64,000 bases of DNA from an uncultured Alphaproteobacteria bacterium (GTDB taxonomy: Bacteria > Pseudomonadota > Alphaproteobacteria > Rhizobiales > Aestuariivirgaceae): positions 129,513-193,512 of the forward strand of contig CAVWGR010000001.1 in assembly GCA_963754625.1 (NCBI GenBank), read 5' to 3'. The notes under the pieces were generated by a model that was not told the DNA's origin, searched no databases, and was given only the letters and a program-made list of their open reading frames with translations. The position numbers and the translations under genes were made by a program. Positions 40,189 through 57,664 of this stretch are shown here, one piece after another. Within the stretch, counting starts at the first letter, position 1; every line of letters starts with the position of its first letter.

Positions 40189-41076
40189 TCAGAAACTCCA
40201 CTCGCGCGCCTTGGACACGAGGAAGTCCCTGAACGCCGTCACCCGTTTGGTTTCTTTCAGTTCTTCCGGATAGACGAAATACGTGTCGTATTCCGGGGTG
40301 TCGATGGGCAGATCGATTTGCACAAGATTCATGTCGGAGGCCACCAGATAGTCGGCGAGGATGGCGATGCCGGCACCTGATTGAGCGGCACGGCGCAGGC
40401 CATAGGCACTGTTGACGCGCAAGGCCACCGGGCGCGGGTCACCTTCTGCGCGGCCAGCCGTTTGCAACATGGTGAGGTTGTTGAGGTAGGTCGCCGAGGT
40501 TCCGAAAATCAGGATCCTGTGCTTGTCGAGATCTTCGGCCGATTTCGGAATGCCGTGCTTCTTCACATAGTCAACCGACGCAAAGACATGGTGGTGCACA
40601 GTGAAGAGCTTGCGCTGGATGAGATCGGGCTGAGTGGGCCGTCGCAAGCGGATCGCCACGTCGGCCTCCCGCATGGAGAGATCAAGTTCCTCGTCCTCCA
40701 GCAACAACTGCACCTGGATGTCGGGATAGAGTTCCATGAACTCCTTGATGCGTGGCGTCAGCCAAATCGAGCCCAGTCCCACTGTCGTGGTGATGCGAAG
40801 TTCACCCGATGGCTTTTCCTTTGAATCCATCAGCCGCGTCTTGGCAGCGGCGAGTTTGGTAAAGACGTCGTGGGCTGTGCGGTACAGCACCTCGCCCTGT
40901 TCAGTGAGGATCAATCCGCGGGCATGGCGGTGGAAGAGCGGAACATTCAAGTCGTCTTCCAGGGCGCTGATCTGGCGGCTCACGGCGGACTGCGAGAGGT
41001 TCAACTCGTGGCCCGCATGAGTGAAGCTGCCAGCGTCGGCAACTGCGTGGAAAATCCGAAGCTTGTCCCAATCCAT
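40189..41076 (-). CDS. lsrB: LysR regulator, LsrB/VtlR type
   Basis: MDWDKLRIFHAVADAGSFTHAG HTH. The position directly downstream of trxB is the conserved lsrB/vtlR synteny. Confidence 0.8.
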   Translation of the reverse strand: MDWDKLRIFHAVADAGSFTHAGHELNLSQSAVSRQISALEDDLNVPLFHRHARGLILTEQGEVLYRTAHDVFTKLAAAKTRLMDSKEKPSGELRITTTVGLGSIWLTPRIKEFMELYPDIQVQLLLEDEELDLSMREADVAIRLRRPTQPDLIQRKLFTVHHHVFASVDYVKKHGIPKSAEDLDKHRILIFGTSATYLNNLTMLQTAGRAEGDPRPVALRVNSAYGLRRAAQSGAGIAILADYLVASDMNLVQIDLPIDTPEYDTYFVYPEELKETKRVTAFRDFLVSKAREWSF

Positions 41077-41079
41077 GCA

Positions 41080-42047
<968 letters not shown>

Positions 42048-42178
42048 GGTATTCTCCATAGCAAGTGTCGCAATTTTCGGCAGGTATGAGGTTTTAGCAT
42101 AGCTCATGTGGGGCGGCCCGCAAGGGGTCGCAAGGGTCTAAACCGGCCTGCTGGCGGAGTTGTGAACATAAACGGCGC

Positions 42179-42204
42179 ATGAACAGTCCATTCAGGGCGG
42201 GTTC
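42179..42204 (+). promoter_or_regulatory. ATGAAC-N5-RTTCAG-N3-GGGTTC motif, copy 1
   Basis: ATGAACAGTCCATTCAGGGCGGGTTC, about 55 nt before the ORF at 42259. Confidence 0.6.
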
Positions 42205-42258
42205 CGGGTCTGCGGTTCAAAAGAGGAGCTACGTTCAACCGATATCCCGGAGCCCAAA

Positions 42259-42546
42259 ATGAAACGCCCCCGCCATCTGATCATGTCCGCAGCGCTCGCC
42301 GTCGCGTTCTTGTCGGCAGGAGCCTTCGCCCAGGTCGATGACATGCAAGTGTCGCAGAACCTGAATAATCAAGCCAACTCCCACATCACCGTCATCAGCA
42401 AGTCCAGCCACCACCGGTTTCGCCTCTTAGTGGGGGCGAAATGCAGCGGGCGTGGCCCGGCCCTCAATGCCCCCTCTGGGTCGGTCCGCCCCGCTGTACT
42501 TCACATCAGGAACAAGCCATGCGCCATATCCTTGCCGCTCTCGTAA
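42259..42546 (+). CDS. Small secreted hypothetical protein
   Basis: GGAG RBS and signal peptide AALAVAFLSAGAFA. C-terminus uncertain. Confidence 0.55.
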   Translation: MKRPRHLIMSAALAVAFLSAGAFAQVDDMQVSQNLNNQANSHITVISKSSHHRFRLLVGAKCSGRGPALNAPSGSVRPAVLHIRNKPCAISLPLS

Positions 42547-42840
42547 TTTTGGCTGCTGCCAGCCCGGCGGCTCTGGCCTCCACCCGCAGCTATTCGTTGC
42601 CAACTGATCCGGGCAAAGCCATTTCGGCTTGCCTCGCCGATGGCAGCCATTGCGGCAAACCTGCCGCCGACCAGTTTTGCAAGTTGGCCGGCTTTTCCGA
42701 GTCGATCCTCTTCCAGCGCCAGTCCGTGACGTCGGCCATCACCATTGATGGTGTCTCGCCAGTGCGAAGGCGACACCTGCCAGGCCTTCACCCGCATCAA
42801 ATGCTACACACCAGTGGAAGAACAGGCGAGCGTGGAGTGA
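42519..42840 (+). CDS. Small secreted six-cysteine protein, frameshift near 42752
   Basis: Signal peptide and CLADGSHCGKPAADQFC. The shifted frame continues RQCEGDTCQAFTRIKCYTPVEEQASVE*. Confidence 0.7.
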
Positions 42841-42844
42841 GGGG

Positions 42845-42949
42845 CTAGAGCAACGTGCGAGCAAGTGGAATCGCTTGCGAAGCGAAAGTTGCTCCAAATC
42901 AAAATGTTAGAGCGGTCTTGCGAGCGCACGCGAGCATTCGCCGCTCTAA
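42845..42949. repeat. RIME/Bru-RS-like palindromic intergenic element, copy 1
   Basis: CTAGAGC...GCTC...TTAGAGCG...CGCTCTAA with two internal hairpins. Similar to 50782-50887. Confidence 0.75.
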
Positions 42950-43821
42950 GCCGCAATCCTGGTTTTCTGCAACGTCCACAGCAGGTGCGCCACTGCTGCT
43001 GAAAGGATGATGGCGCCGCCGATCATGGCTGGGGCCGGTGGCCACTCGCTGAGGAACGCCAGCACCCAGATTGGGGCGAATGCGGCATTGAGAATTCCGA
43101 GCAGGCCGGACTGGGCGGCCGGAATGCGTTGCATGGCGTTGAACAGCAACAGATTGCCCACCGCCAGTTGCACCATTCCAAAGAGCGCCATGAGCGACCA
43201 GTCCTGCTGTGACAAGTTGGTGAAATCGGCAAATGGCAGTGCAATGAGCCCGCTGGCCAACACGGTGAGGCAACTGGTCGGCAGAATGTCGAGCTTGGGC
43301 ATGCGGCGCACCAGCAGGATGATGCAAGAGAAGGTGAGCACACACCCCAGTGACATCAGGTCGCCGATCAGGCCGCCACTGCTGGCGCCGGAAATCATCA
43401 TCACTGTAATACCGGCAAATCCAGCCACGGCTGCAAGCAGGGTCGCAGTATCAAGGGGCTCCTTCAGGACGATGCGCGCAGCGATGGCGGCAGCGAAGGG
43501 CGAGATGGCGAAAATCATGAAGAAGTTGGCGACGCTCGTATAGGTCAGGGCGACGATGTTGAGCATCATGCCAAGGGCATTGAGGAAGACGAGCAAGAGG
43601 CCACCCAGTCCAACGGCCTTCAGCGCGCTGAACGTGCCACGGCCATCGCGCCAGATCAAAAGCGCCAGCACCACCGCAAAGGCAAAGAAGCCACGCCCTG
43701 AGGTGAGGGTGAATCCGTCGGCGCCGATGATCCGGGTAAACAGCCCGGAAGATGAATCAATTGCCGAGCCTGCAATCAGCAGCAGAAGGCCGGCCCGGGC
43801 CGTATTGGGGAAGATCGGCAT
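42946..43821 (-). CDS. DMT/EamA family transporter
   Basis: About ten TM helices in two EamA repeats (ISPFAAA..LKEP; LNAAFAPIW..LSEWP). Confidence 0.88.
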   Translation of the reverse strand: MPIFPNTARAGLLLLIAGSAIDSSSGLFTRIIGADGFTLTSGRGFFAFAVVLALLIWRDGRGTFSALKAVGLGGLLLVFLNALGMMLNIVALTYTSVANFFMIFAISPFAAAIAARIVLKEPLDTATLLAAVAGFAGITVMMISGASSGGLIGDLMSLGCVLTFSCIILLVRRMPKLDILPTSCLTVLASGLIALPFADFTNLSQQDWSLMALFGMVQLAVGNLLLFNAMQRIPAAQSGLLGILNAAFAPIWVLAFLSEWPPAPAMIGGAIILSAAVAHLLWTLQKTRIAA

Positions 43822-43896
43822 CGGGTGGTCATGGCGGAGAGGTGATGATTTGGAAAGGTGGTCTGCCGCAGGGCGGGCATGCGGGAAGTGTCGGCA

Positions 43897-44524
43897 TCAA
43901 GGCATGCCGTTGCGGTCCCATACCTTGCGGACCTTGGGATTTTCAGCGACGGCGGCATAAAGCTCGCGCAACTTGCCATGTCTGGCGAAAAGCCCCGGCA
44001 CATCATCAGACCAGGATATGAGCATCGCGGCATACAGGTCGGCCGCACTGATGGACTTGCCCAGGATGAAGGGGCCGTCGGCTATGGCCGTCGACCAGTA
44101 CATCGAAATCTCGCGCCAGGTCAGCCGAGGCCTTGGCCTTGATGCCTGCCGCGTGGCCGGCATCGGTGGAATAGCGCTGAGGATAGTAGAGGCGGAGGTC
44201 GGTGGGGTAGGCTGCGGCGGCGAGATAGATCATCCAGCGCAAGAATTGCGCGCGCGCGCTGCTGCCCAGTGGCGGGGCGAGACCAGCATCAGGGTAACTG
44301 TCAGCGAGATGGATCATCATCGCCGCACTTTCCGTCATGATGCTGTTGTCGGGAAGTTGCAGACTGGGAATCTCACCGCGTGGGTTGATGGCGATGTACC
44401 AGTCCGGTGCTGTGCCAGCAGCGGTTTTGGCCACGTCCTTGACCTCATGAGGGATGGCCAAAAGTGCAAAGAGTGCCTCAACGGCGGCAGAACCACTACC
44501 GGCGCGGGAATAGAGCGTGTACAT
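43897..44524 (-). CDS. Glutathione S-transferase, frameshift near 44095
   Basis: INPRGEIPSL and MTESAAM. The second frame gives DGPFILGKSISAADLY. Confidence 0.85.
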
Positions 44525-44638
44525 GATTGATGAGTGTCCTTTGCGAACAGACTAGCGCTTGTGCAATGCACGGCAAGTGACTTGCGAGTCGCGTCGTGTG
44601 GCTTCATACTAAGTGCGGGCGGAGAATGGGTAAGCCTG

Positions 44639-45175
44639 ATGAAATCGATACGTATGTCAGCCGTTGCGATGGCATTGCTCCTGGGGACTGCTGCCGGAGC
44701 GCAGGCAGAGTGTCCGGCCGAAGGCTTTGTACTGAGTGCGGGCAATGCATTTCTGGCAGCGGCGCGTAACGGTTCGCCGTCTGCTTTTACATCGGCCGCC
44801 GCACGTTATGCTGATCTCCGTTCGATCGCCATGTTTGCCCTCGGCCCGCATCGCAAATCCCTGCCAAAGGCCAAGGAAGCTGAATATGTCGGATTGGCGA
44901 AAGCCTATATGGGACAGTTCATGTCGCGCCATGCAGCAAAGTTTTCCGGTAGCGGTCTCAAGGTGACGACTTGCTCTGGCAACACCGTCAACGCGTCCAC
45001 TGCTGCCGGCAAGAAACTGATCTTTCGGGTTTCGGGCGGCAAGGGCCGCTACCGGGTTCAAGACGTGAATGCCGCGTCGATCTGGCTCGCCGGCCAGATG
45101 CGCACAACTTTCGTCAGTGTCATCAACCGCAACCATGGTGACGTCAACGCACTCCTGAAATTCCTGCGCAGCTGA
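44639..45175 (+). CDS. MlaC/Ttg2D-like periplasmic substrate-binding protein
   Basis: Signal peptide, DLRSIAMFALGP, YRVQDVNAASIWL. Confidence 0.65.
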   Translation: MKSIRMSAVAMALLLGTAAGAQAECPAEGFVLSAGNAFLAAARNGSPSAFTSAAARYADLRSIAMFALGPHRKSLPKAKEAEYVGLAKAYMGQFMSRHAAKFSGSGLKVTTCSGNTVNASTAAGKKLIFRVSGGKGRYRVQDVNAASIWLAGQMRTTFVSVINRNHGDVNALLKFLRS

Positions 45176-45958
45176 TCACTTGACTGCGAGCAGGAACAGC
45201 CGCGGGAACGGGTAGAGCAACAATCCGTCGTCCATCACCGGGTAGTGGGGTGCAACCGCCTTGCGGTAGTCGGCGAGAAAAGCTTGCCGTTGTTCCATGT
45301 CCAGAGGATCGAGATACGGCCTGAGGCCGGTGGTTGAGAGCATGTCGATAATGCCTTGGTGACCGTGCAGCAGATGCAGGTACGAGGTCTTCCAGATGTC
45401 GAGGTGCGTACAGAGCGGGCGCAAGATCTGGTGATAGCCCTGGGGCGACAGCAGGGCCGCGCGGGCCGATGAGGCCTTGGCGAGTTTGCTTGCATAGGCC
45501 GGCTTTTGCGAAACCTTGGCCATTTGAACATGGCTTTGTTCACCGAGAGTGTCCGGCATCTGCACGGCAAGAATGGCACCTGGCTTGAGCGCATCGAGAA
45601 TGCGGACGAGGTGGCGGGTGTGGTCGGGCAGCCACTGGAACAGGGCATTGGCGAATACCAGATCGGCGTTCGGGTTGGGCTGCCACTGGGCGACATCACC
45701 AACAATGAATTTCGCCTTGGGCAGGGTTTTCTTGGCCTTGGCAATCATGGCGTGGGAACTGTCGATGCCGGTGAGTGTCGCCTTGGGGAAGGCCGCCGCA
45801 AGGAGCGCCGTTGAGTTTCCCGGTCCGCAGCCAAGGTCGTGGATCAGGGCAGGGGTGCGATTGGGCAGGCGGGCGATAAGGTCCAAGGCAGGCTGGGCCC
45901 GCTCATCGGCGAAGGCGAGATATTGCGTGGGGTTCCAGTCGGATTTGGATTGGGACAT
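45176..45958 (-). CDS. tam: Trans-aconitate 2-methyltransferase
   Basis: [46 protein letters not shown]. Confidence 0.92.
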
Positions 45959-46062
45959 GGTTCTTTCATAGCCCGCTTTCCCTCCGGCTTTCCACTGTGG
46001 GGAAAACCTGCTTGGAATCGAGGGGTTCATCCGCTAGGGAACCGCAAATCGGAATCCCGCAC

Positions 46063-49000
46063 ATGCCCAAAAGAACAGACCTCAAGTCCATCCTCATCAT
46101 CGGGGCTGGGCCGATCATCATCGGCCAAGCCTGCGAATTCGACTATTCCGGCACGCAAGCCTGCAAGGCCCTGAAAGAGGAAGGCTACCGCGTCATTCTC
46201 GTCAATTCCAATCCGGCCACCATCATGACCGACCCGGACCTGGCAGACGCCACCTACATTGAGCCGATCACGCCGGAGGTGGTGGCAAAGATCATCGAGA
46301 AGGAACGCCCTGACGCCATCCTCCCCACCATGGGCGGACAGACGGCACTCAATACGGCCCTCTCGCTCAACCGCATGGGGGTGCTGGACAAATACAACGT
46401 CGAACTGATCGGCGCCAAGGCGGAGGCCATCGACAAGGCCGAGGACCGGGAAAAGTTCCGCGACGCCATGTCGAAGATCGGCCTCGAGAGCCCGCGCTCC
46501 ATGCTGGCCAATGCCTCGGCCCTGAAAGAATCCGACCGTGACCAGTTCGCCGCAGAGATGGCGCGCCTCAAGGCCGGCAGCGGCGACGTTGCAGCATTTG
46601 AAAAGCAGTGGGCTTCGGGTGAAGCCGACCGGCAAAAGAAATATCGCGACCGCGCCCTGGTCGAAGCCTTCGAGGCCATGCTGGCGATTGGTCTTCCGTG
46701 CATCATCCGTCCGTCCTTCACGCTGGGCGGCACGGGTGGCGGCATTGCCTACAACCGCGATGAATTCCTCGACATCGTCGAGAAGGGACTGGATGCCTCG
46801 CCGACCTCGGAGGTGCTGATCGAAGAGTCGGTTCTCGGGTGGAAGGAATATGAGATGGAAGTGGTTCGCGACAAGGCGGACAACTGCATCATCATCTGTT
46901 CGATCGAGAACATTGATCCAATGGGCGTGCACACGGGTGACTCCATCACCGTCGCACCGGCCCTCACGCTCACCGACAAAGAATACCAGATCATGCGCAA
47001 CGCCTCGATTGCGGTGCTGCGCGAGATCGGCATCGAGACTGGCGGTTCGAACGTGCAATTCGCCGTCAATCCGAAAGACGGCCGGCTGCTGGTGATCGAA
47101 ATGAATCCGCGCGTGTCGCGCTCCTCGGCGCTGGCGTCGAAGGCGACCGGCTTTCCCATTGCCAAGGTGGCGGCGAAGTTGGCAATTGGTTACACATTGG
47201 ATGAACTGGCCAATGACATCACGGGTGGCGCAACGCCTGCGAGCTTCGAGCCTACCATCGACTATGTGGTGACCAAGATCCCGCGCTTTGCATTCGAGAA
47301 ATTTCCTGGCTCCGAACCACTCCTTACCACCGCCATGAAGTCGGTCGGTGAAGTCATGGCCATTGGCCGCACTTTCCAGGAAAGTTTCCAGAAGGCGTTG
47401 CGCGGTCTGGAGACGGGATTGTCAGGTCTTGATGAAATCACCATTCCCGGTGTCGGTGAAGGCGATGACAAAAATGCCATTCGCGCCGCGCTGGGCCAGC
47501 CAACACCTGACCGGCTGCTCAAGATTGCGCAATCATTCCGCCACGGTGCAACAGTCGAACAGATCAATTCATCATGCCACTATGAGCCATGGTTCCTGCG
47601 TCAGATTGAAGAGCTGGTTCAGACGGAAGAAATCATAAAAAACAAGGGCTTGCCGCGCGATCCTGAGAATTTACGCAAACTGAAGGCGATGGGCTTTTCA
47701 GACAAGCGCCTGGGCAAGCTGGTCGGTCTGAGCGAAGCCAAAGTTGCCGCGCATCGCCGCAAGCTCGCGGTGCGTCCTGTGTACAAGCGTATTGATACCT
47801 GTGCCGCCGAATTCGCTTCACCCACCGCCTACATGTACTCGACCTATGAAACAGGAATTGCCGGCAACAACGGCAACGAAGCCTTCGTCTCGGACAAGAA
47901 AAAAGTGATGATCCTTGGTGGCGGACCCAACCGCATCGGCCAGGGCATTGAGTTTGACTATTGCTGTTGCCACGCCTGCTTTGCTCTCCATGACGCCGGT
48001 TACGAGTCGATCATGGTGAACTGCAATCCGGAAACCGTTTCCACCGACTATGATACGTCCGACCGTCTCTATTTCGAACCGCTCACAGCGGAAGACACGC
48101 TCGAAATCATCCATGCCGAGCAGCAGGCCGGGACCTTGCATGGTGTCATCGTGCAGTTTGGCGGGCAGACACCGCTAAAGCTAGCGAGTGCGCTGGAGGA
48201 AGCTGGCGTCCCCATCCTCGGCACTACTCCTGATGCCATCGACCTGGCGGAAGACCGTGACCGCTTCGCCAAGCTGATCAAGAAACTGAAACTGCGGCAA
48301 CCGGAAAATGGCATCGCGCGATCTGGCCCGGAAGCAAAAAAAATCGCCAAGCGCATCGGCTTCCCAGTGGTCATCCGTCCGTCCTACGTGCTGGGTGGCC
48401 GGGCCATGGAAATCGTTCGCGATGATGCTCACCTGCAACGTTACATCACCGAAGCGGTGGTGGTCTCGGGCGACAGCCCGGTATTGATCGACAGCTATCT
48501 TTCCAATGCCACGGAGGTGGACGTTGATGTGATCGCCGATGGCAAGGATGTCTTCATCGCGGGCATCATGGAGCACATCGAGGAGGCTGGCATTCACTCT
48601 GGTGACAGCGCCTGCTCACTGCCACCTTATTCGCTGAAGCCTGCTGTCATCGCCGAGCTTGAGGCGCAAGCCAAGGTTCTCGCCGTTGCGCTCAAGGTCG
48701 TCGGGCTCATGAATGTGCAGTTCGCGGTCAAGGATGATGTTGTCTACATTCTCGAAGTGAACCCGCGCGCCTCGCGTACGGTGCCTTTCGTCGCCAAGGT
48801 GATCGGCGAACCGGTGGCCAAGATCGCTGCACGGGTCATGGCGGGCGAGAAGCTTGCCGGGTTCAAGCTGAAGCAGAAAAAGCTCAGCCATGTGGCCGTC
48901 AAGGAAGCCGTGTTCCCTTTCAACCGCTTTCCCGGCGTGGATGTTTTGCTTGGGCCGGAAATGCGCTCGACGGGCGAGGTCATGGGCCTCGACAAGAGCT

Positions 49001-49446
49001 TCGACATGGCGTTTGCCAAGTCGCAGATTGGTGCGGGCATGCGCATTCCACAAAGTGGCACGGTGTTTGTGTCGGTGAAGGAAAGCGACAAGTCGCGGGT
49101 GTTACCGGCGATCAAAAAACTGGTCGAGTTGGGCTTCTCGATTTGCGCGACCGGCGGCACCTACAGCTATCTCGAACAGAAAGGCATCGCCTCGGTTAAG
49201 ATCAACAAGGTTCTGGAGGGCCGCCCCCATGTGGTGGACGCGCTCAAGAACGGCGACATTCAACTGGTGCTGAATACCACTGAGAGCAAGTCTTCGGAAT
49301 CCGACTCGAAGTCGATCCGCCAGACTGCGGTGATGCAGAAAGTGCCGTACTACACCACCTTGCCGGGCATTCTGTCGGTCACCAAAGCCATCGCGGCGCA
49401 AAAAGCCGATACCATCCAGGTCAGACCGCTGCAGGACTATTTCTGA
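46063..49446 (+). CDS. carB: Carbamoyl-phosphate synthase large subunit
   Basis: [16 protein letters not shown], duplicated ATP-grasp domains (IEMNPR, LEVNPR), C-terminal MGS domain. Confidence 0.98.
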
Positions 49447-49518
49447 GACCTGCCGGTATTGTTGAATCGTATTGGCCAATTGCTGTTCCAGTCGCTGTCT
49501 TTCGTGGGCTGGTTTTCA

Positions 49519-49770
49519 TCAGAACCCGCGGTTCATCATGGCCTGGGCCGAAACCTGATAGTTTGATTGCTGATGGATGAGTGACAGTTGCGCCTGGGGG
49601 CGGATGTCATCTTCACCAACGTCAGCCAGCAGGTGTGGCGACAGGCTCGGTTTTTCCGCTGACAGCGACTGCAAGAGCCCGGCCAGGAGGCGATGCACGT
49701 GACGTCCCAGAGAGAGTTTTTCTGAGGATGGGGTGGTCTTGCCTGAGTTGATTGATGTTGTGTTTGCCAT
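49519..49770 (-). CDS. Small protein with a DUF1127-like motif
   Basis: AGGAGA RBS, 83 aa. SLSPHLLADVG resembles the DUF1127 LSDHLLxDIG motif. Divergent from a LysR gene. Confidence 0.55.
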   Translation of the reverse strand: MANTTSINSGKTTPSSEKLSLGRHVHRLLAGLLQSLSAEKPSLSPHLLADVGEDDIRPQAQLSLIHQQSNYQVSAQAMMNRGF

Positions 49771-49858
49771 GGTATTTCTCCTTTTGATGTTCTGAAGTTG
49801 GGCCACAGAACGCAAAAACGGAAACGAGTTGCGTAAATTCGCGGAATGAGTTGTGCTC

Positions 49859-50785
49859 ATGGGCATGGTACTGCCCTTGGCTTTCGACTTGGACCTTCTC
49901 CGCAGCTTCATCATTATTGCGGAGGAAAAGAGCTTTACCCGTGCAGCCGAAAGGGTGGGACGGACGCAGTCCGCCATTTCACTTCAGATAAAAAGGTTGG
50001 AAGGAGTTCTCGGCCAGGAAGTCTTGTCACGTGGCAAGGGTGGCACTGTGGAACTGAACGCGTTTGGGCAGGCCCTGCTAGGCCGGGCTCGGGAGTTGCT
50101 TGCGCTCAATGACGACGTGATGAAATCACTCAAAGCAGCGCCCATAATGGGGACCATCCGACTTGGAATTGCTGAAGAATTAACCAACCGGTTCCTGGCA
50201 CGCATCCTGAAGAACATTGCATTGGCTGCGCCTTCTGTTGAGGTTCAGGTTACCACCGCCGGTTCCTGCGTCCTCGCGCCGCAATTGAAGAATGAGTTAC
50301 TGGACATCGTCCTCTTGGAGGAAAGCCAGGAACCAAGGCAATGGCCTGCGGAAGAAATATGGCGGAGTCAATTGCGTTGGGTGACTTCGGACATACACAA
50401 CCAACATCTGCGTGACCCGCTGCCGATCACGGTCTCACCACGAGATTGCCCATGGCGGCCGTCATGGCTCAATGAATGTCTTTGGCGGGGCATGGCTATC
50501 CGGGCCCTGAATCGCAGCAATCGGAAATACGAGATTGTGGCAACGTCCGGCACAACAGCGGGCCAACTTGCGGCGGTGTCGGCTGGGTTGGCTGTTACGG
50601 GAACCCTAGTGGACGACCATTTACCTGCGGGTGTGCGGCAGGTCATGCCTGATGAAGGATTGCCGGAGTTGCCTGAAACAAGTTTTTTGATGCTGAGAGG
50701 CAAGGAAGCACCACAACCACTGACCGACTTGCTTGCGGTGCAGATCAGGCAGGTTTTTGAACAATTTGGTCCAATTGTCCACTAG
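49859..50785 (+). CDS. LysR family transcriptional regulator
   Basis: DLDLLRSF, SFTRAAERVGRTQSAISLQIKRLE, IRLGIAEE. Confidence 0.92.
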   Translation: MGMVLPLAFDLDLLRSFIIIAEEKSFTRAAERVGRTQSAISLQIKRLEGVLGQEVLSRGKGGTVELNAFGQALLGRARELLALNDDVMKSLKAAPIMGTIRLGIAEELTNRFLARILKNIALAAPSVEVQVTTAGSCVLAPQLKNELLDIVLLEESQEPRQWPAEEIWRSQLRWVTSDIHNQHLRDPLPITVSPRDCPWRPSWLNECLWRGMAIRALNRSNRKYEIVATSGTTAGQLAAVSAGLAVTGTLVDDHLPAGVRQVMPDEGLPELPETSFLMLRGKEAPQPLTDLLAVQIRQVFEQFGPIVH

Positions 50786-50887
50786 AGCAACGTGCGAGCA
50801 AATGGAATCATTTGCGAAGTGTAAGTTGCTCCAGATTCAAAGAGTTAGAGCATCTTGTGGACGGTCAATTGACCGTCCGAAGCACTC
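50782..50887. repeat. RIME/Bru-RS-like element, copy 2
   Basis: CTAGAGCAACGTGCGAGCAA...GTTGCTCCA...TTAGAGC. The first 20 nt are identical to copy 1; the right end is degenerate. Confidence 0.72.
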
Positions 50888-50963
50888 GTGGCTTCAAGCA
50901 GTTTACTGCCTGCCTGATGCAGAGCCCCGGGAATGCAGGTTTATCGGTAGGGTCTGGGACCCC

Positions 50964-51085
50964 TTGCAAAATCGACCGCTTTGGGCCACATTAGGGGATA
51001 CCCGGCGGGGCGTTGGTGCCCGTGTGCCGGGTGTTTTCTTGTTAACTCTGCCGCCAACAAACCCCGGTTTTTCGGGTCGGCGGCA
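50964..51085 (+). promoter_or_regulatory. greA promoter and structured leader
   Basis: TTGCAA-N17-CACATT, a hairpin ACCCGGC/GCCGGGT followed by GTTTTCTT, and a second hairpin TGCCGCC/GGCGGCA. Confidence 0.5.
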
Positions 51086-51109
51086 ATGTGCCGATTGGAA
51101 GATACGACG

Positions 51110-51583
51110 ATGGAAAAAGTGCCGATGACTGCCAGTGGCTACGACGCCCTGATCGAGGAAGTAAAGCACCTCAAGTCGGTTGAACGCCCGCGCATCATTC
51201 GCGCCATTGAAGAAGCGCGCGCCCATGGCGACCTTTCCGAAAATGCCGAATACCATGCGGCCAAGGAAGCCCAGGGCTGGAACGAGGCCCGTGTGGCCGA
51301 AATCGAAGACAAGATCAGCCGCGCTGACGTGATCGACGTGTCCAAGCTCTCCGGTGACACGGTAAAATTTGGCGCAAAGGTGACACTCATCGACGAGGAT
51401 ACCGAGGTCAAGGTCATGTACCAGATCGTGGGTGACAGCGAAGCCGACGTCAAAAAGGGCCGCATTTCGATTTCCTCACCCATTGCCCGCGCCATTATCG
51501 GCAAGCGCAAGGGTGACAGCGTCGAAGTTGCAACACCCGGCGGCGGCAAGTCCTACGAGATCGACCGCGTCGCCTGGGGCTGA
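51110..51583 (+). CDS. greA: Transcription elongation factor GreA
   Basis: [25 protein letters not shown]. Confidence 0.97.
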
Positions 51584-51645
51584 GTTGCCGCGGGGTCCGT
51601 ACGCCCATGCGCCTCTGCAATCTTAAAACTGTCAATATTTCGACG

Positions 51646-51659
51646 TTGACTTAAATCAA
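51646..51659 (+). promoter_or_regulatory. FNR/FixK box
   Basis: TTGAC-TTAA-ATCAA (consensus TTGAT-N4-ATCAA), 60 nt upstream of a usp gene. Confidence 0.65.
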
Positions 51660-51718
51660 GGCAGCGGCAGCGCTGCTGCTTCATGAATCCATTGTTCCCA
51701 GCCATTGGAGGCAAGTTC

Positions 51719-52129
51719 ATGAAAAAGATTCTTTGCGCAACGGATGGTACGTCCCACGGTGAAAAAGCTGTGGCTTTCGCCGCGCGTCTGGCGAGCCTCG
51801 AAGGTGTGCCTCTCTCGATCTGCACGGTCAACGTCATGACGGGTGGGCTGCGTGGCCCCGCCATCTATGCTCACTCCGATCGTGAAGTGTCGAAGGTGCT
51901 CAACGATGCTGTGGCAGCTGCCAAGACTGCTGGTGCCAAGGAGGTTTCTGCGGTTGAACTTGACGCCCGCGAAGTGGCGCCATCGGTAATCTCCTATGCC
52001 AACCGCGAAGGCTTCGATCATATCGTCACCGGCACTGGCGATCCGCGCGGCGTGAAGCGCCTGGTGCTTGGCTCGGTGGCGGCCAGCATTGCCGCCGCCG
52101 CAGATTGCCCGGTGACCATCGCCCGCTAG
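51719..52129 (+). CDS. Universal stress protein
   Basis: KKILCATDGTSHG...IVTGTGDPRGVKRLVLGSVA..PVTI. Confidence 0.92.
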   Translation: MKKILCATDGTSHGEKAVAFAARLASLEGVPLSICTVNVMTGGLRGPAIYAHSDREVSKVLNDAVAAAKTAGAKEVSAVELDAREVAPSVISYANREGFDHIVTGTGDPRGVKRLVLGSVAASIAAAADCPVTIAR

Positions 52130-52180
52130 ATGCCATTGGTCACATGGTGGCGTGTGACTGATACCTTGCAACCTTGGCCA

Positions 52181-53408
52181 TCATTGTTGTCCTGGCAACA
52201 GGTGCTTGATGGCCGGGGCCATTGTTTGGGCAAGGGCTTGCTGGCCGGTGGCGGTGAAATGGACGTTTGACGGAAAGAACGCGGCCGGGCCGGTGCTGAT
52301 GGCTTCGGTGTAGGCCGGCGTCTCATCAATAAAATCAAATCCGATGACGGAGGCTGCGCTGGCCAGCCAGTCGCGTTGCATGCCGTGCAGGTTTGCCATG
52401 ACCGGGGCAATGGCCGGATCGTTGAAGTTGGTCGCATTGCCGTAGGCGGTATAGGCTGCGGGTGTCAGCATGACGACTGGCCTGAACGCATTCGCGCGCG
52501 CCAGTTTGACAAACTCGAGCAGCGGGGCACGGCAACTTTCGATCAGGGCAGGAGTTGCTTGCAGCTGGCGCGCCAGTTTCAGTTCATCGAGATCACCGTT
52601 GCGGATATTGAAACCCACGGGTTTGCCCTGCACAGCTGCTGCAAACCGGAAGTCTTCCGAAGCTGATCGCTTCAGGTATTTCACCAGGGCGTTGCCGCCT
52701 GCATAGATGAAATTGAGAGCGTAGCTGTAGCGCATGGGATTGATGGCGGAGGAGCGGCGTTCGACGGCTGCGCCACTGCCCGACTTCAGGAATTCCTCGT
52801 GCAGCAGGCAATCCCGCACGTCATTGGACTCGGCGTAGGCCATGACAACGATGCGTGGTTTGAGGGCCAAGCCATGGGCGCGCAACACTTCGACGTAGTC
52901 ATAGGGTCCGGCACCACCGACGGTCATATTGTAAGTCTTGAAACCCGCAACCTTGCCAAGTTGCGCAGCAAAGGTCTGGTCCGGGCGCACGCCGGTGCAG
53001 CTTGGAACCGAACCTCCGAGGACCAGGACATCGATTGGTGCTGCTTCAAAGGCACCGGGTGGATTGCAGAATCCATAGGCATCCGAGTGTTTGCACTTCG
53101 AGTGCGCCCGCCTCGCGGTCGGCGGCATCGGCGGGCCAAAGATAGGTGGCATTCGGCTCGAAGAGGGCAATGTCGCGGCCGCCATCCTGGCGTGATGCCG
53201 ATGGCAGGATGCGGTACTCACGCGCTGTCGGCAGGCCAATGACTGCCGCAATGTCGGCCCGCAGATCGGGGTCGAACCTGGCGAGGAACGGCAAGCTGAT
53301 GAGGCCGGGGGACATGCGCAGGGCAACCTCGAACAGTCCAAGGCCACATGCCAACATGATGATCCAGACCGCAATGGTCTTGCCCCAGTCGGATTTGTAC
53401 TGCGTCAT
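52181..53408 (-). CDS. Membrane-anchored SGNH/GDSL-like hydrolase, frameshift near 53084
   Basis: N-terminal TM, VLVLGGSVPSC (block I), ESND (block III), FPSNVHFT (block V). Frames join as EVQTL-DAYGFCN. Confidence 0.65.
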
Positions 53409-53434
53409 GGTCGCGAATATCTCCTGTCGAATAC

Positions 53435-54613
53435 TTATACGCGGCGCGCGGTGCGTTGTGCGGCCCAGAGGATCAGGCCGGCAATCAGGCCCCAGAACGC
53501 AGCCCCGATGCCGAACAGCGAAATGCCGGATGCGGTGGTCAGAAATGTGACAAGGGCGGCTTCAATCTCGCGCGGTTCTTTCATCATGGCGGAGATACTG
53601 CCGGTGAGCGGGCCAAAAAGAGCGAGCCCGGCGATTGCTGTCACAACATCCTTTGGCAGCGCGCCGAGGAGCGACACGAAGGTTCCGGCGGCAAGACCGA
53701 AAATCACATAGAGCGCGGCGTAGGGATAGATCATTTTCCAGCGCTGGCCCGGATCGGGATGGGCGTCGGGACCCGCCACCAGTGACGCAGTGATCGCCGC
53801 CATGTTGATGGCGTGGCTGCCGAAGGGGGCTGCCAGGATTGAGCCGATACCCGTCACCAGCAAACACGCCGTTACCGGCGGCTGGTAGCCGTTGGCGCGC
53901 AATACGGCAAAGCCTGGCAGGTTCTGCGATGCCATGGTGACGAAATAGAGCGGGATGCCAAGACTGACGATGACGCCCAGGTTCCACACGGGCCAATCAA
54001 ATGTCAGCGGTGTGACGGCAACGCTGATCGCTTGGCTGAAGGCCCCGGCAAGACCCGCGAGGACAAGGCCGAGCGCCACGATGATCGGCACGGAATACAT
54101 CGGCACGACAAAGCGCAAGGCGAAGAAGGCAAGGATCAGCGGCACCACCAGATGCGGCGAGGACAGTGCCGCCGCCGGCACACCCAGCACATAACGCAGC
54201 AGCACGCCGGCCAGCATGGCGGCGGCGATGCTGGCGGGCATGCGTTCGATGGCGCGGGCCAGCGGGGTGATGACAGCGGTCAGCACCATCAGTGCGCCCG
54301 CCACCATGAAAGCGGCAATGGCCTGCGGGAAGGTGATGCCAAGGGCACTCGTTGCCATCAGCACTGCGCCCGGCGTCGACCAGGCGATAACGATCGGCAT
54401 GCGATAGCGCACTGCCAGAATGGTGGAGCCGATGGCCATGGCAAAGCAGAGAATCGCAGCAACCGAGGCCTGCTGTGCCGGGTTGGCTCCGGCGGCGCGG
54501 GCGCCTTCGATCACCACCAGAATCGTTGACGCAAAGCCGACGATCACCGCTGCTGTGGCAGACGAAAAGAGCGAGCCCCAGTGGTTGTCTTTGCTGGCGA
54601 TTGTCCCGGTCAT
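53435..54613 (-). CDS. BenE family (benzoate/H+ symporter-like) transporter
   Basis: VGFAST, AWSTPG, VTMASQNLPG, INMAAITA, GIGAAFWGL. Confidence 0.9.
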   Translation of the reverse strand: MTGTIASKDNHWGSLFSSATAAVIVGFASTILVVIEGARAAGANPAQQASVAAILCFAMAIGSTILAVRYRMPIVIAWSTPGAVLMATSALGITFPQAIAAFMVAGALMVLTAVITPLARAIERMPASIAAAMLAGVLLRYVLGVPAAALSSPHLVVPLILAFFALRFVVPMYSVPIIVALGLVLAGLAGAFSQAISVAVTPLTFDWPVWNLGVIVSLGIPLYFVTMASQNLPGFAVLRANGYQPPVTACLLVTGIGSILAAPFGSHAINMAAITASLVAGPDAHPDPGQRWKMIYPYAALYVIFGLAAGTFVSLLGALPKDVVTAIAGLALFGPLTGSISAMMKEPREIEAALVTFLTTASGISLFGIGAAFWGLIAGLILWAAQRTARRV

Positions 54614-55074
54614 GGCAGCGGTACCTCGGGATCGTCCTTGGCGACATGCAGGATGAGCGAAGTCTTCACGCTTTCAACATTGGGGGCTTTGGCAAGCGCG
54701 CCCATGACAAAGGCCTGGATCGATTGCAGGTCGCGTGCCACACATTTGAGGATGAAGTCGGCGTCGCCGGAAACCGCATGGCATTCCCGCACAATGGGCC
54801 AGCCTTTGACGCGGCGCTCGAAATCAGCCATTTCGCTCTGTGCCTGGCTGCGGAGACCAACCATGGCGAAAAGCTTGACCCCGTAGTCCAACATCTCGGC
54901 ATCAAGCTGGGCCCGGTAGCCTTTGATGTAACCAGCCTTTTCGAGAACCTGAACGCGGCGCAAGGTGGGAGGCGGCGACAGCCCCACCCGGGTGGCGAGG
55001 TCGACGTTGGTAACTCGCCCGTCTTTCTGCAACTCGCGGAGTATCTTCCAGTCGATGGTATCAAGCTTGGCCAT
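54610..55074 (-). CDS. Lrp/AsnC family regulator
   Basis: LDTIDWKILRELQKDGR, VGLSPPPTLRRV, SGDADFILK. ATGA overlap with the BenE gene. Confidence 0.93.
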   Translation of the reverse strand: MAKLDTIDWKILRELQKDGRVTNVDLATRVGLSPPPTLRRVQVLEKAGYIKGYRAQLDAEMLDYGVKLFAMVGLRSQAQSEMADFERRVKGWPIVRECHAVSGDADFILKCVARDLQSIQAFVMGALAKAPNVESVKTSLILHVAKDDPEVPLP

Positions 55075-55123
55075 TGCGTCGGCTCTATACGCAATAAAAT
55101 TTCGCGGTGGAAGCAGTGCCTGA

Positions 55124-55305
55124 AAAGAAAAACCCCGGCTTTGGGCCGGGGCAAGGTTCAGGCGGGGTCGGGATCACGTTGCAGGGGATCGGAGCGCCTG
55201 GGGCCTTTTGGGGAGAGTAGTTTGGAAGACATAGAGAGGAGCCGGGGCCAGCCTTGGGTCTGGCGAGGGGGCGGGTTATCAGGCCTTTGACCTTGCCCCG
55301 GCTCC
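55124..55305 (-). ncRNA. Candidate 3'UTR structured RNA, copy A (three hairpins, the last a terminator)
   Basis: 11-bp stem 55238-48/55295-305, 6-bp stem 55159-64/55195-200, and terminator CCCCGGC/GCCGGGG with a U-tract. Conserved with copy B. Confidence 0.6.
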
Positions 55306-55348
55306 AACATCCGCGCTGCCGTCCAGCGCACGGACGTATTCGAATGGG

Positions 55349-55537
55349 TTATTCTTCTGAGCAATCCTCGTTGGCACAAGGCTCAAGCTCGATTTCACCG
55401 AACTGCGGGAAGGCCTGGTTCTTGGCGATCACCGTGGTGTGGGCCGGATTGGAAATCTGCTCAGCCGGCGCGATAGAGGCAACGGCGGTGGCGGCAGAAC
55501 CGATAACGGCGAGAACGAAGAGTGTGTAGCGGATCAT
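55349..55537 (-). CDS. 62-aa secreted peptide with C-terminal C-x4-C, copy A
   Basis: AGGGAGG RBS. MIRYTLFVLAVIGSAATAVA...FGEIELEPCANEDCSEE. Confidence 0.85.
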   Translation of the reverse strand: MIRYTLFVLAVIGSAATAVASIAPAEQISNPAHTTVIAKNQAFPQFGEIELEPCANEDCSEE

Positions 55538-55587
55538 TGTGAACCTCCCTGGTTCGGTTGTTGGGAGAACCATAGGCCGCGCCAGAC

Positions 55588-55613
55588 GAACCCACGCTGA
55601 ATGAGCCGTTCAT
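55588..55613 (-). promoter_or_regulatory. ATGAAC-N5-RTTCAG-N3-GGGTTC motif, copy 2
   Basis: Minus strand ATGAACGGCTCATTCAGCGTGGGTTC. Confidence 0.65.
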
Positions 55614-55690
55614 CTGGCGTTTAGATTCAGGAAATCTTGGGTGGCCTGCAAATTTCTCAGCGGTGAAATGGATTGCGCCATCCCCACAAC

Positions 55691-55840
55691 AGAAAACCCC
55701 GGCTTTTCGGGCCGGGGCACCTGACAGGGCGGGATCACTTTGCAGGGGATCGGGGAGCCTGTCGGGAGAAGTTGGAACCGGGGCCTGCCTTGGGACTGAC
55801 GAGGGGGCGGGTTAATCGGCCTTTGGGAAGGCCCCGGTTC
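55691..55840 (-). ncRNA. Candidate 3'UTR structured RNA, copy B
   Basis: 12-bp stem 55775-86/55829-40, a GACAGG/CCTGTC stem, and a terminator hairpin with a U-tract. Confidence 0.6.
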
Positions 55841-55884
55841 TTTTCGCCATTCAACTCTTGCGAGCCGGACAGCGAAACTCAAAT

Positions 55885-56073
55885 TCATTCCTCAGAGCAA
55901 TCCTCCACGGCACATTCCTCGATAATGAGGTCGCCGAACTGCGGGAAAGCCTGATTTTTAGCCACCACCGTAATATTGGCGGGGCTGGACGTTTGGGTTG
56001 TTGGAGCGATCGAGGCGATGGCCGTTGCGGCGGAACCAATCACTGCGAGAGCAAAGAGTGTGTACCTAGTCAT
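55885..56073 (-). CDS. 62-aa secreted peptide with C-terminal C-x4-C, copy B
   Basis: AGGAGG RBS. MTRYTLFALAVIGSAATAIA...FGDLIIEECAVEDCSEE; 46/62 identical to copy A. Confidence 0.85.
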   Translation of the reverse strand: MTRYTLFALAVIGSAATAIASIAPTTQTSSPANITVVAKNQAFPQFGDLIIEECAVEDCSEE

Positions 56074-56135
56074 CTTGAACCTCCTTTCGGTCCTGTAAGC
56101 CTTGAACTTGGCAATGGTTCTATTGGATCCATCAC

Positions 56136-56161
56136 GAACCCGTGCTGAACGCGCTGTTCAT
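56136..56161 (-). promoter_or_regulatory. ATGAAC-N5-RTTCAG-N3-GGGTTC motif, copy 3
   Basis: Minus strand ATGAACAGCGCGTTCAGCACGGGTTC. Confidence 0.65.
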
Positions 56162-56245
56162 CTGGCGTTAACCTTTGCAATCTCGAAAAAAGCCGTGATT
56201 GCAACAGAAAATCCTGCTTTTCTCATTGCTTAGGGAGAACCTGTC

Positions 56246-57664
56246 ATGGACAACGCGTTGCATTGGCTGTCGGCCGCGAAGTTGAACAAGGGCTATCGCA
56301 AGAAAAAATTTTCGCCCGTGGAGGTTGCGATGGCGTGCCTTGGGCGGATGGCGGCGCATGAAAAGACCCTCAATGCCATGGCATTGATCGACGAGCCTGT
56401 GACCCTCGCCATGGCCAAAGCCAGTGCCAGACGCTGGAAAAAGGGTAAACCGCTGTCGCCCCTTGATGGCGTGCCGGTGCTGATCAAGGACCTGCTGCTG
56501 GTCAAGGGCTGGCCAACACTGCGCGGTTCGCGCCTCACCGATCGTAACCAGCCGTGGGAACATGATGCGCCGTGCGTGGCGCGGCTGCGCGCGGCAGGTG
56601 CGGTATTTCTGGGGCTCACCACCACGCCGGAATTCGGCTGGAAGGGGGTCACGGATTCGCCGCTCACCGGCGTTACCCGCAATCCGTGGAACCCGGCAAC
56701 CACACCCGGCGGATCATCGGGCGGTTCGGCTGCCGGTTTGGCGGCTGGCTATGCCCCGCTCGCCATCGGCACCGATGGGGGTGGATCAATCCGTATCCCG
56801 GCGGGTTTCACCGGCACGTTCGGCCACAAACCATCTTTCGGGCGGGTGCCGGCCTGGCCACTGTCACCCTTTGGCACGGTGGCCCATGTCGGACCGATGA
56901 CGCGGCGTGTGAAAGATGCTGCCTTGATGCTCAATATCATGGCGCAACCTGACAACCGTGACTGGTTCTCATTGCCTTATGATGGTGCCGACTACAGCAA
57001 GGGCCTGGGCCAGAGTTTGGGCAAGAGCGTCAAGGGTCTGCGCATCGCCTACAGCCCACGCCTCGGCTACGTTGATGTTGATCCTGAAATCGCCGCGCTG
57101 GTGCAGCGGGCGGTCGGGGTGCTGTCAGATCTCGGTGCCAAGGTCGAGGAAGTTGATCCCGGTTTCAGCGATCCTGCTGAGTGTTTCCGTGTCTTGTGGT
57201 TCTCGGCTGCGCGCAACATGCTGGGGCAATTGCCGCCGGAGAAGAAGGCGTTGCTTGATCCGGCGTTGGCGGACGTGGTGGAACAGGCAGCATCGATCAC
57301 CGTGCAGGACATTTTCGAGGCCAACCGCACGCGCGGACTGTTGGGCACGCAGATGCGCCTGTTCATGGAGAAGCATGATGTGCTGGTGACACCGACACTG
57401 CCCATCCCTGCGTTTGGTGCCGGGCTGTTGCAACCGGCTGACCCCGACAGCAAAGGCAAGTGGGTGAACTGGACGCCCTTCACCTATCCCTTCAACCTGA
57501 CACAGCAACCTGCGGCGAGTGTGCCTTGCGGTTTCACTGCGGCTGGTCTGCCTGCGGGCCTGCATGTCATTGGCCGGATGTTCGATGACAAGACCGTGCT
57601 GAAGGTTTGTGCAGCGTATGAACGGGCAACGGATTTCCACAAGGCGCGGCCCGCCGGATTTTGA
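56246..57664 (+). CDS. Amidase signature family protein
   Basis: GVPVLIKDL, PGGSSGGS, GTDGGGSIRIPA. Confidence 0.92.
   Translation: MDNALHWLSAAKLNKGYRKKKFSPVEVAMACLGRMAAHEKTLNAMALIDEPVTLAMAKASARRWKKGKPLSPLDGVPVLIKDLLLVKGWPTLRGSRLTDRNQPWEHDAPCVARLRAAGAVFLGLTTTPEFGWKGVTDSPLTGVTRNPWNPATTPGGSSGGSAAGLAAGYAPLAIGTDGGGSIRIPAGFTGTFGHKPSFGRVPAWPLSPFGTVAHVGPMTRRVKDAALMLNIMAQPDNRDWFSLPYDGADYSKGLGQSLGKSVKGLRIAYSPRLGYVDVDPEIAALVQRAVGVLSDLGAKVEEVDPGFSDPAECFRVLWFSAARNMLGQLPPEKKALLDPALADVVEQAASITVQDIFEANRTRGLLGTQMRLFMEKHDVLVTPTLPIPAFGAGLLQPADPDSKGKWVNWTPFTYPFNLTQQPAASVPCGFTAAGLPAGLHVIGRMFDDKTVLKVCAAYERATDFHKARPAGF

Follow-up and report, generated by a model that had tools for sequence, protein, structure and literature searches.

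A 37-bp element made of four GAAC-like half-sites precedes three genes for small exported proteins in the stretch of DNA analysed here (hereafter the window: 64,000 nt of contig CAVWGR010000001.1, positions 129,513 to 193,512, from an uncultured alphaproteobacterium of the Aestuariivirgaceae). It probably serves as an array of binding sites for a regulator from the PhoP/PmrA/QseB subgroup of the OmpR/PhoB family; the likeliest candidate is the predicted FeuP orthologue, whose gene lies outside the window at C5:710056-710727 of the same genome, and a FeuP-type regulator would most likely switch on small exported envelope proteins through this motif. This is a known kind of switch, represented by a new example in a little-studied genus; the four-half-site layout and its spread across the order are what the present case adds.

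The core of the element, the 26-bp motif ATGAAC-N5-RTTCAG-N3-GGGTTC, had been reported at positions 42179, 55588 and 56136 in an initial annotation made from the sequence alone. A pattern search of the window recovered exactly these copies with zero mismatches (42179-42204 on the plus strand, 55588-55613 and 56136-56161 on the minus strand), and no fourth copy was present in the window at up to three mismatches. None of 100 dinucleotide shuffles contained a match, and a search of the whole genome (G000; 3,266,962 bases or 3.27 Mb in 8 contigs, 99.8% complete) returned the same three copies only. All three are intergenic and oriented toward the downstream gene, ending 54, 50 and 62 nt before its ATG, in agreement with the ~50-65 nt given initially, and each of the three small genes encodes a signal-peptide-like N-terminus. 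As also noted there, the 42 kb locus shows no DNA similarity to the 55-56 kb loci outside the element; at the protein level there is a weak resemblance in a TVI(S/A)K stretch. Comparison of the two 55-56 kb units, which hold tandem paralogues, yielded 79% identity for the element as opposed to 40% for the region upstream of it, 52% for the spacer and 5′ untranslated region (UTR), and 70% for the coding sequence, with differences within the element confined to the N positions.

Beyond the 26-bp motif, each window site has a fourth block, TAAAC, at a distance of 11 bp on the upstream side of TGAAC (exact blocks in Table 1). The full element hence reads TAAAC-N6-TGAAC-N5-RTTCA-N6-GTTCC, with four half-sites in an 11-bp period: TAAAC and TGAAC point forward, RTTCA and GTTCC backward, with symmetry about the N5 centre. 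The initial annotation had described a TGAA-N7-TTCA palindrome combined with an 11-bp repeat. The period held, but the palindrome did not, as the element is two direct-repeat boxes placed head-to-head. The proximal boxes, i.e. those nearer the gene, are ATTCAG-N4-GGTTCC, ATTCAG-N4-GGTTCG and GTTCAG-N4-GGTTCG in the window; in relatives and elsewhere in G000 the form is RTTCAK-N5-RTTCA. When a downstream TAnnnT is taken as the –10 hexamer, the four blocks fall at about –61, –50, –40 and –29, and no –35 hexamer was found at the element promoters. Short direct half-sites with a 10-11-bp period near –35 are what characterizes sites of the OmpR/PhoB family, and the four half-sites display precisely this arrangement. 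As TAnnnT recurs 13 nt past the box in relatives and in both tandem units of the window, transcription is predicted to start ~25 nt after the box.

The element is conserved well beyond this genome. Of 115 genomes from the genus Aestuariivirga, 101 encode homologues of the 62-amino-acid (aa) exported protein found at 55-56 kb (family A), often in tandem. Alignment of the regions upstream of family A-type genes at 30 loci of relatives revealed the extended consensus cTAAACgccagATGAACggnnCATTCAGnnnnGGTTCc-N12/13-TAnnnT, followed by CAAGaTCGAAC or CAAGTTCAACG, and in relatives at least 58 sites of the form cTAAACgccagATGAACggnnCATTCAGnnnnGGTTCc-N12/13-TAnnnT precede genes of families A and B. The pattern AAC-N5-ATGAAC-N5-RTTCAG was present in 97 of 121 genus genomes, at one to six copies each, and in 45 of the 401 genomes that sampled the order; the reversed-pattern control matched none of either set (0/121 and 0/401). 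In genomes from beyond the genus, TGAAC takes the place of the first block as well, giving the general form TGAAC-N6-TGAAC-N5-GTTCA-N6-G(T/C)TCA, and the element was found in other Hyphomicrobiales families before several unrelated small exported proteins. Off-array sites precede orthologues of the 42 kb gene (family C; loci L041 and L042), a Cys-rich family of 110-122 aa, peptides of 48-60 aa, and SH3b and DUF1127 proteins. The word CAAGaTCGAAC or CAAGTTCAACG itself occupies predicted positions +1 to +10 of most box-dependent transcripts (about 55555-55566 and 56093-56104 on the minus strand of the window; L002-L030 in relatives), and some of its copies contain a GTTCA-like half-site.

Placement of the single box was likewise non-random across the genome. 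Gene calls made for this analysis comprised 3,275 genes, leaving 8.7% of the genome intergenic; of 23 occurrences of RTTCAK-N5-RTTCA, 18 were intergenic compared to 2.0 expected, corresponding to an eight- to nine-fold enrichment. A co-directional box lies 20-150 nt upstream of 21 genes, 14 of which encode an export-like (hydrophobic) N-terminus, against a background of 27.6% (Fisher P = 2e-4). Behind the boxes of this genome are genes for an L,D-transpeptidase (YkuD), two SH3_3 proteins, a 610-aa OmpA-like protein, a Gly-zipper protein, a Tat-signal protein, a cytochrome c′, a DUF1127 protein and several exported peptides of 41-122 aa, as well as cpdR. This enrichment of exported proteins bears out the envelope part of the initially proposed "envelope or metal-stress" targets, while nothing points to metal stress. 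Similarly, the idea of a co-regulated set stood, but its size was revised from three sites to about 20 promoters in this genome. Two other arrangements of the half-sites were observed. At C5:911914-911955 (minus strand), another four-half-site element, TGAAC-N6-TGAAC-N5-CTTCA-N6-GTTCA, precedes an 83-aa Cys-rich exported peptide that lies outside the gene calls and is followed by another small gene beginning MKTL. At C3:104349-104385, three tandem 11-bp units (GCGCTGAACTG), representing three phased TGAAC half-sites, are located just upstream of a cupin-like 113-aa gene.

The box also marks a candidate for the protein that would bind it. This genome encodes eight OmpR-family regulators of classical size, and a single one of them sits in a box-bearing operon, which is composed of genes for a PepSY-like exported protein (C5:709603), the regulator (C5:710056-710727) and a PhoQ-like kinase. 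The upstream box, at C5:709542, reads GTTCATGTGCCATTCA-N12-TATCTG. The same box, followed by a CTAnnn hexamer, was found at the orthologous operon in each of the 28 genus loci for which the upstream DNA sufficed, and the box was found there in four of five genomes of other families. No box was detected within 600 nt upstream of cenR, chvI, phoB, ctrA or the gene for a second PhoP-like paralogue. Conservation of the box at the regulator's own operon would find its simplest explanation in autoregulation. The regulator scored highest with the PmrA, PhoP and QseB models, though below their cut-offs, and its best structure matches were BasR and PhoP; a large protein database returned generic names only. 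Its identity across families of the order is 70-79%.

A closely similar box has been described in Sinorhizobium meliloti. Schlueter et al. (2013) reported that TTCA-N7-TTCA, their "Motif 3", precedes mapped transcription starts, and put it forward as the FeuP binding site: FeuP dependence was seen for five of 12 genes with the motif, which also occurs at other genes that depend on FeuP, feuN among them (PMC3616915). The boxes listed in their Table S17, e.g. TTCATCCGGCGTTCAG and TTCATTTGCCATTCAG (the latter of feuN), end 23-25 nt before the start, and inverted copies ending at –47 precede SMc02389 and SMc01557 (PMC3616915). The proximal box of the window, TTCA-N7-TTC(A), agrees with Motif 3 in its half-site (RTTCAT/G), spacing and co-directional orientation. 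It would also end ~24 nt before the start predicted here from the –10, as Motif 3 does before the starts mapped in S. meliloti. Moreover, the inverted copy of SMc02389 (TTCATCTGGCGTTCAT), read on the gene strand as ATGAACGCCAGATGAA, spans –62 to –47 (PMC3616915), matching in both words and position the distal box that was placed here by the –10 alone. In both organisms a box precedes the first gene of the regulator operon, which encodes a small periplasmic protein. Target classes run parallel, too: the FeuP-dependent genes of S. meliloti encode for the most part hypothetical proteins that are small and exported or membrane-bound, besides an OmpA/MotB protein and a small protein rich in arginine (PMC3616915), and small exported or membrane proteins and OmpA-family proteins recur here, a likeness of class rather than of shown orthologues. 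Together with the 11-bp half-sites, the genus-wide box at the regulator operon and the exported targets, this match to a published candidate FeuP motif favours the OmpR-like regulator, with FeuP as a candidate, that had been suggested initially. Differences are that the present organism belongs to another bacterial family, that the last half-site of the window elements ends in C or G (GTTCC, GTTCG), and that the four-half-site layout, the rule at small-protein genes here, is not described as such in the S. meliloti study (PMC3616915). A FeuP preprint on Agrobacterium contains no binding motif. 

The classic FeuP target is ndvA; unlike S. meliloti, this genome yielded no NdvA equivalog above the cut-off. 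As for the mode of action, each box RTTCA(T/G)-N5-RTTCA would dock one head-to-tail dimer of the phosphorylated regulator. At the proximal box (about –40 to –25), which would stand in for the absent –35 and ends 13 bp before the –10-like TAnnnT, the bound regulator would recruit sigma-70 RNA polymerase. PhoP boxes show the same arrangement, with the regulator over the –35 position and sigma-70 polymerase recruited. The distal box (about –61 to –46) abuts the proximal one in the opposite orientation, which would bring four half-sites onto one face of the helix; it probably holds a second dimer, and induction at the three window promoters may thereby be stronger or more cooperative. Conservation, phasing, intergenic enrichment, target class and the box at the regulator operon are direct observations; the identity of the binding protein, activation and the start positions are what we infer. 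Enterobacterial boxes offer a further parallel. The PhoP box, TGTTTA-N5-TGTTTA, and the PmrA box, CTTAAT-N5-CTTAAT, are likewise direct repeats of hexamers separated by 5 bp; they overlap the –35, or take its place, ~12 bp before the –10, and share with the present system the regulator subgroup, an autoregulated regulator operon (predicted here) and small membrane or periplasmic targets. The GTTCAT half-site and the second, inverted box set the present element apart.

Several observations weigh against this assignment to a FeuP-type activator. The regulator is a putative orthologue of S. meliloti FeuP, judging by its subfamily, its gene order and the box common to both, and a paralogous regulator is encoded at C5:1340650. 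The FeuP site in S. meliloti is itself a computational proposal (PMC3616915). Two dimers bound head-to-head would be unusual for this regulator family, and the 42 kb promoter of this genome is devoid of a good –10 at the expected offset. Finally, a subclade of the genus (loci L093-L103; genomes G038, G006, G124, G148, G181, G182, G106, G112, G070, G110 and G053) possesses family A genes without the box. The corresponding upstream regions harbor other words instead, such as AAACTGAACACAAC...GTTACAAGACCGTCCTA and TGTGAC-N5-GTTACA, which suggests a regulator switch in this lineage.

Binding by a different member of the OmpR family, i.e. CenR, the second PhoP-like paralogue or ChvI, is unlikely but the most credible of the alternatives. 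The eight classical-size regulators of this genome leave room for it, and the distal pair, T(A/G)A-N8-TGA, fits the loose CenR consensus. In Rhodobacter sphaeroides, CenR recognizes TGA-N8-TGA and its targets are mostly extracytoplasmic proteins, including an L,D-transpeptidase (PMC9275681); the S. meliloti CenR site is AGTCAC-N6-GTGACT, with TAA tolerated in the left half-site (PMC11328730). Sites of the CenR regulon would be expected at cenR and at tol genes. CenR sites thus resemble the element in their 11-bp period, in the family of the regulator, in an envelope regulon like that of the box targets here, and in lying just upstream of or over the –35. CenR half-sites, however, have the core GTCAC/GTGAC or TGAC rather than GTTCA, and the cenR promoter of this genome is box-less, as are those of chvI and the second paralogue over the 600 nt searched, whereas the box of the FeuP-like operon is conserved. 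Agreement with the S. meliloti FeuP motif, moreover, extends to spacer words and position.

Very improbable is a promoter for an extracytoplasmic function (ECF) sigma factor, with TGAAC as –35 and GGTTC as –10. The resulting GAAC-N16-GTT does resemble SigH/SigR-type ECF promoters, the distance to the ATG would leave a plausible 5′ UTR, and the genome contains four ECF-like sigma genes. Yet the motif is found at none of these four, a separate –10-like hexamer lies 13 nt downstream, and what would be the spacer (CATTCAG), along with the upstream TAAAC, is conserved as much as the supposed –35 and more than the supposed –10. The EcfG promoter of this genome has the canonical form GGAAC-N16-CGTT. 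S. meliloti transcripts start 23-25 nt past the box (PMC3616915). How conservation is distributed, the absence of a sigma gene under its own control and the start sites mapped in S. meliloti lead us to reject the ECF promoter. The NepR-EcfG locus of this genome is located near C1:226064, outside the window, where GGAAC-N16-CGTT precedes a gene for a 51-aa membrane protein just downstream.

An SOS function of the boxes as LexA operators is still less probable. The alphaproteobacterial LexA box is GTTC-N7-GTTC, and a perfect GTTCA-N6-GTTCA always contains it, as does a single one of the window sites; both kinds of box are built on GTTC and repeat it directly at 11 bp. Intergenic occurrences of GTTC-N7-GTTC in this genome, however, fall into two classes: recA and lexA carry GTTC(T/C) with AT-rich spacers, while in the boxes described here the half-sites read GTTCA(T/G)C and the spacers are GC-rich. 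ATTC stands in place of GTTC at two of the three window sites, AAAC is found in the distal pair, and the targets are genes for exported proteins rather than repair genes. Compared to a FeuP-type regulator, the ECF, LexA and CenR alternatives all fit worse. Action of the palindrome as RNA is the least probable reading: TGAAC-N5-GTTCA could pair as a short leader hairpin, and an ATG at the motif start would open short upstream reading frames (MNSPFRAGS, MNSAFSTGS and MNGSFSVGS, i.e. MNxxF...), but the stem would span just 4-5 bp and, at two sites, include a C-A mismatch, conservation runs in blocks without a codon pattern, an Rfam scan of 41000-57500 gave no match to the motif (and one sub-threshold Atu_C7 hit elsewhere), and the element should lie upstream of the transcription start, judging by the S. 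meliloti mapping.

Coordinates of the elements, their predicted –10 sequences and the downstream genes are compiled in Table 1.

Table 1. Elements, –10-like hexamers and small genes at the three window sites (PWM, position weight matrix score).
Feature	Position	Strand	Remark
Four-half-site element TAAAC-N6-TGAAC-N5-ATTCA-N6-GTTCC (holds the 26-bp motif)	42169..42205	+	PWM 45.5 bits
Small exported protein gene, family C	42259..42546	+	95 aa as read here
62-aa exported protein, family A copy 1 (signal peptide, NQAFPQFG, C-x4-C, acidic tail)	55349..55537	-	
–10-like TATGGT, 13 nt past copy 1 element	55569..55574	-	TAnnnT kept at same offset in relatives
Four-half-site element, tandem copy 1 (TAAAC / TGAAC / ATTCA / GTTCG)	55587..55623	-	PWM 58.6 bits
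62-aa exported protein, family A copy 2	55885..56073	-	
–10-like TAGAAC, 13 nt past copy 2 element	56117..56122	-	
Four-half-site element, tandem copy 2 (TTAAC / TGAAC / GTTCA / GTTCG)	56135..56171	-	PWM 44.1 bits

At the 42 kb locus, inspection of the family C gene revealed that its relatives end at 55-58 aa with ...GFAS*, and that this ending (ggtttcgcctcttag, 42416-42430) is present here but displaced by one base from the reading frame, which points to a 1-nt frameshift in a ccaccacc run or to an assembly error; the extended 95-aa frame overruns into the next gene. A second small open reading frame with a signal peptide (109 aa, 42519-42848, plus strand) lies directly 3′ of the family C gene past a GC-rich hairpin. 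It has no Pfam match and may be co-transcribed with the family C gene. On the other side, a divergent thioredoxin-reductase-like gene (41196-42107) possesses a good sigma-70 promoter of its own (CTTGCG-N17-TATGCT, within 42108-42168 on the minus strand), and the palindromic element therefore seems not to serve it. In both tandem units, a conserved 3′ region of ~200 nt (55124-55348 and 55690-55884, minus strand) precedes an intrinsic terminator; its words AACCCGCCCCCTCG and GATCCCCTGCAA recur downstream of homologues in relatives.

More speculatively, and with a low chance of proving right, the double box might define a distinct, high-gain promoter class reserved for tiny exported proteins, which might modulate the sensor kinase in the periplasm in the manner of FeuN, or protect the envelope. 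In that case, the fast-diverging micro-protein genes, arranged in tandem, would form a tunable output or feedback layer of the FeuPQ envelope stress system across Hyphomicrobiales. FeuPQ is required for Sinorhizobium symbiosis and for virulence-related traits of Agrobacterium, and its DNA site has so far been proposed from one genome. The comparative evidence assembled here, comprising the operon box in relatives, the intergenic enrichment, and the position and words shared with S. meliloti, makes the FeuP site much firmer, provides an exact sequence to test, and would allow FeuP regulons to be read from genome sequence alone. In free-living freshwater relatives, the box marks several unstudied families of small exported proteins as what would be the main output of the system.

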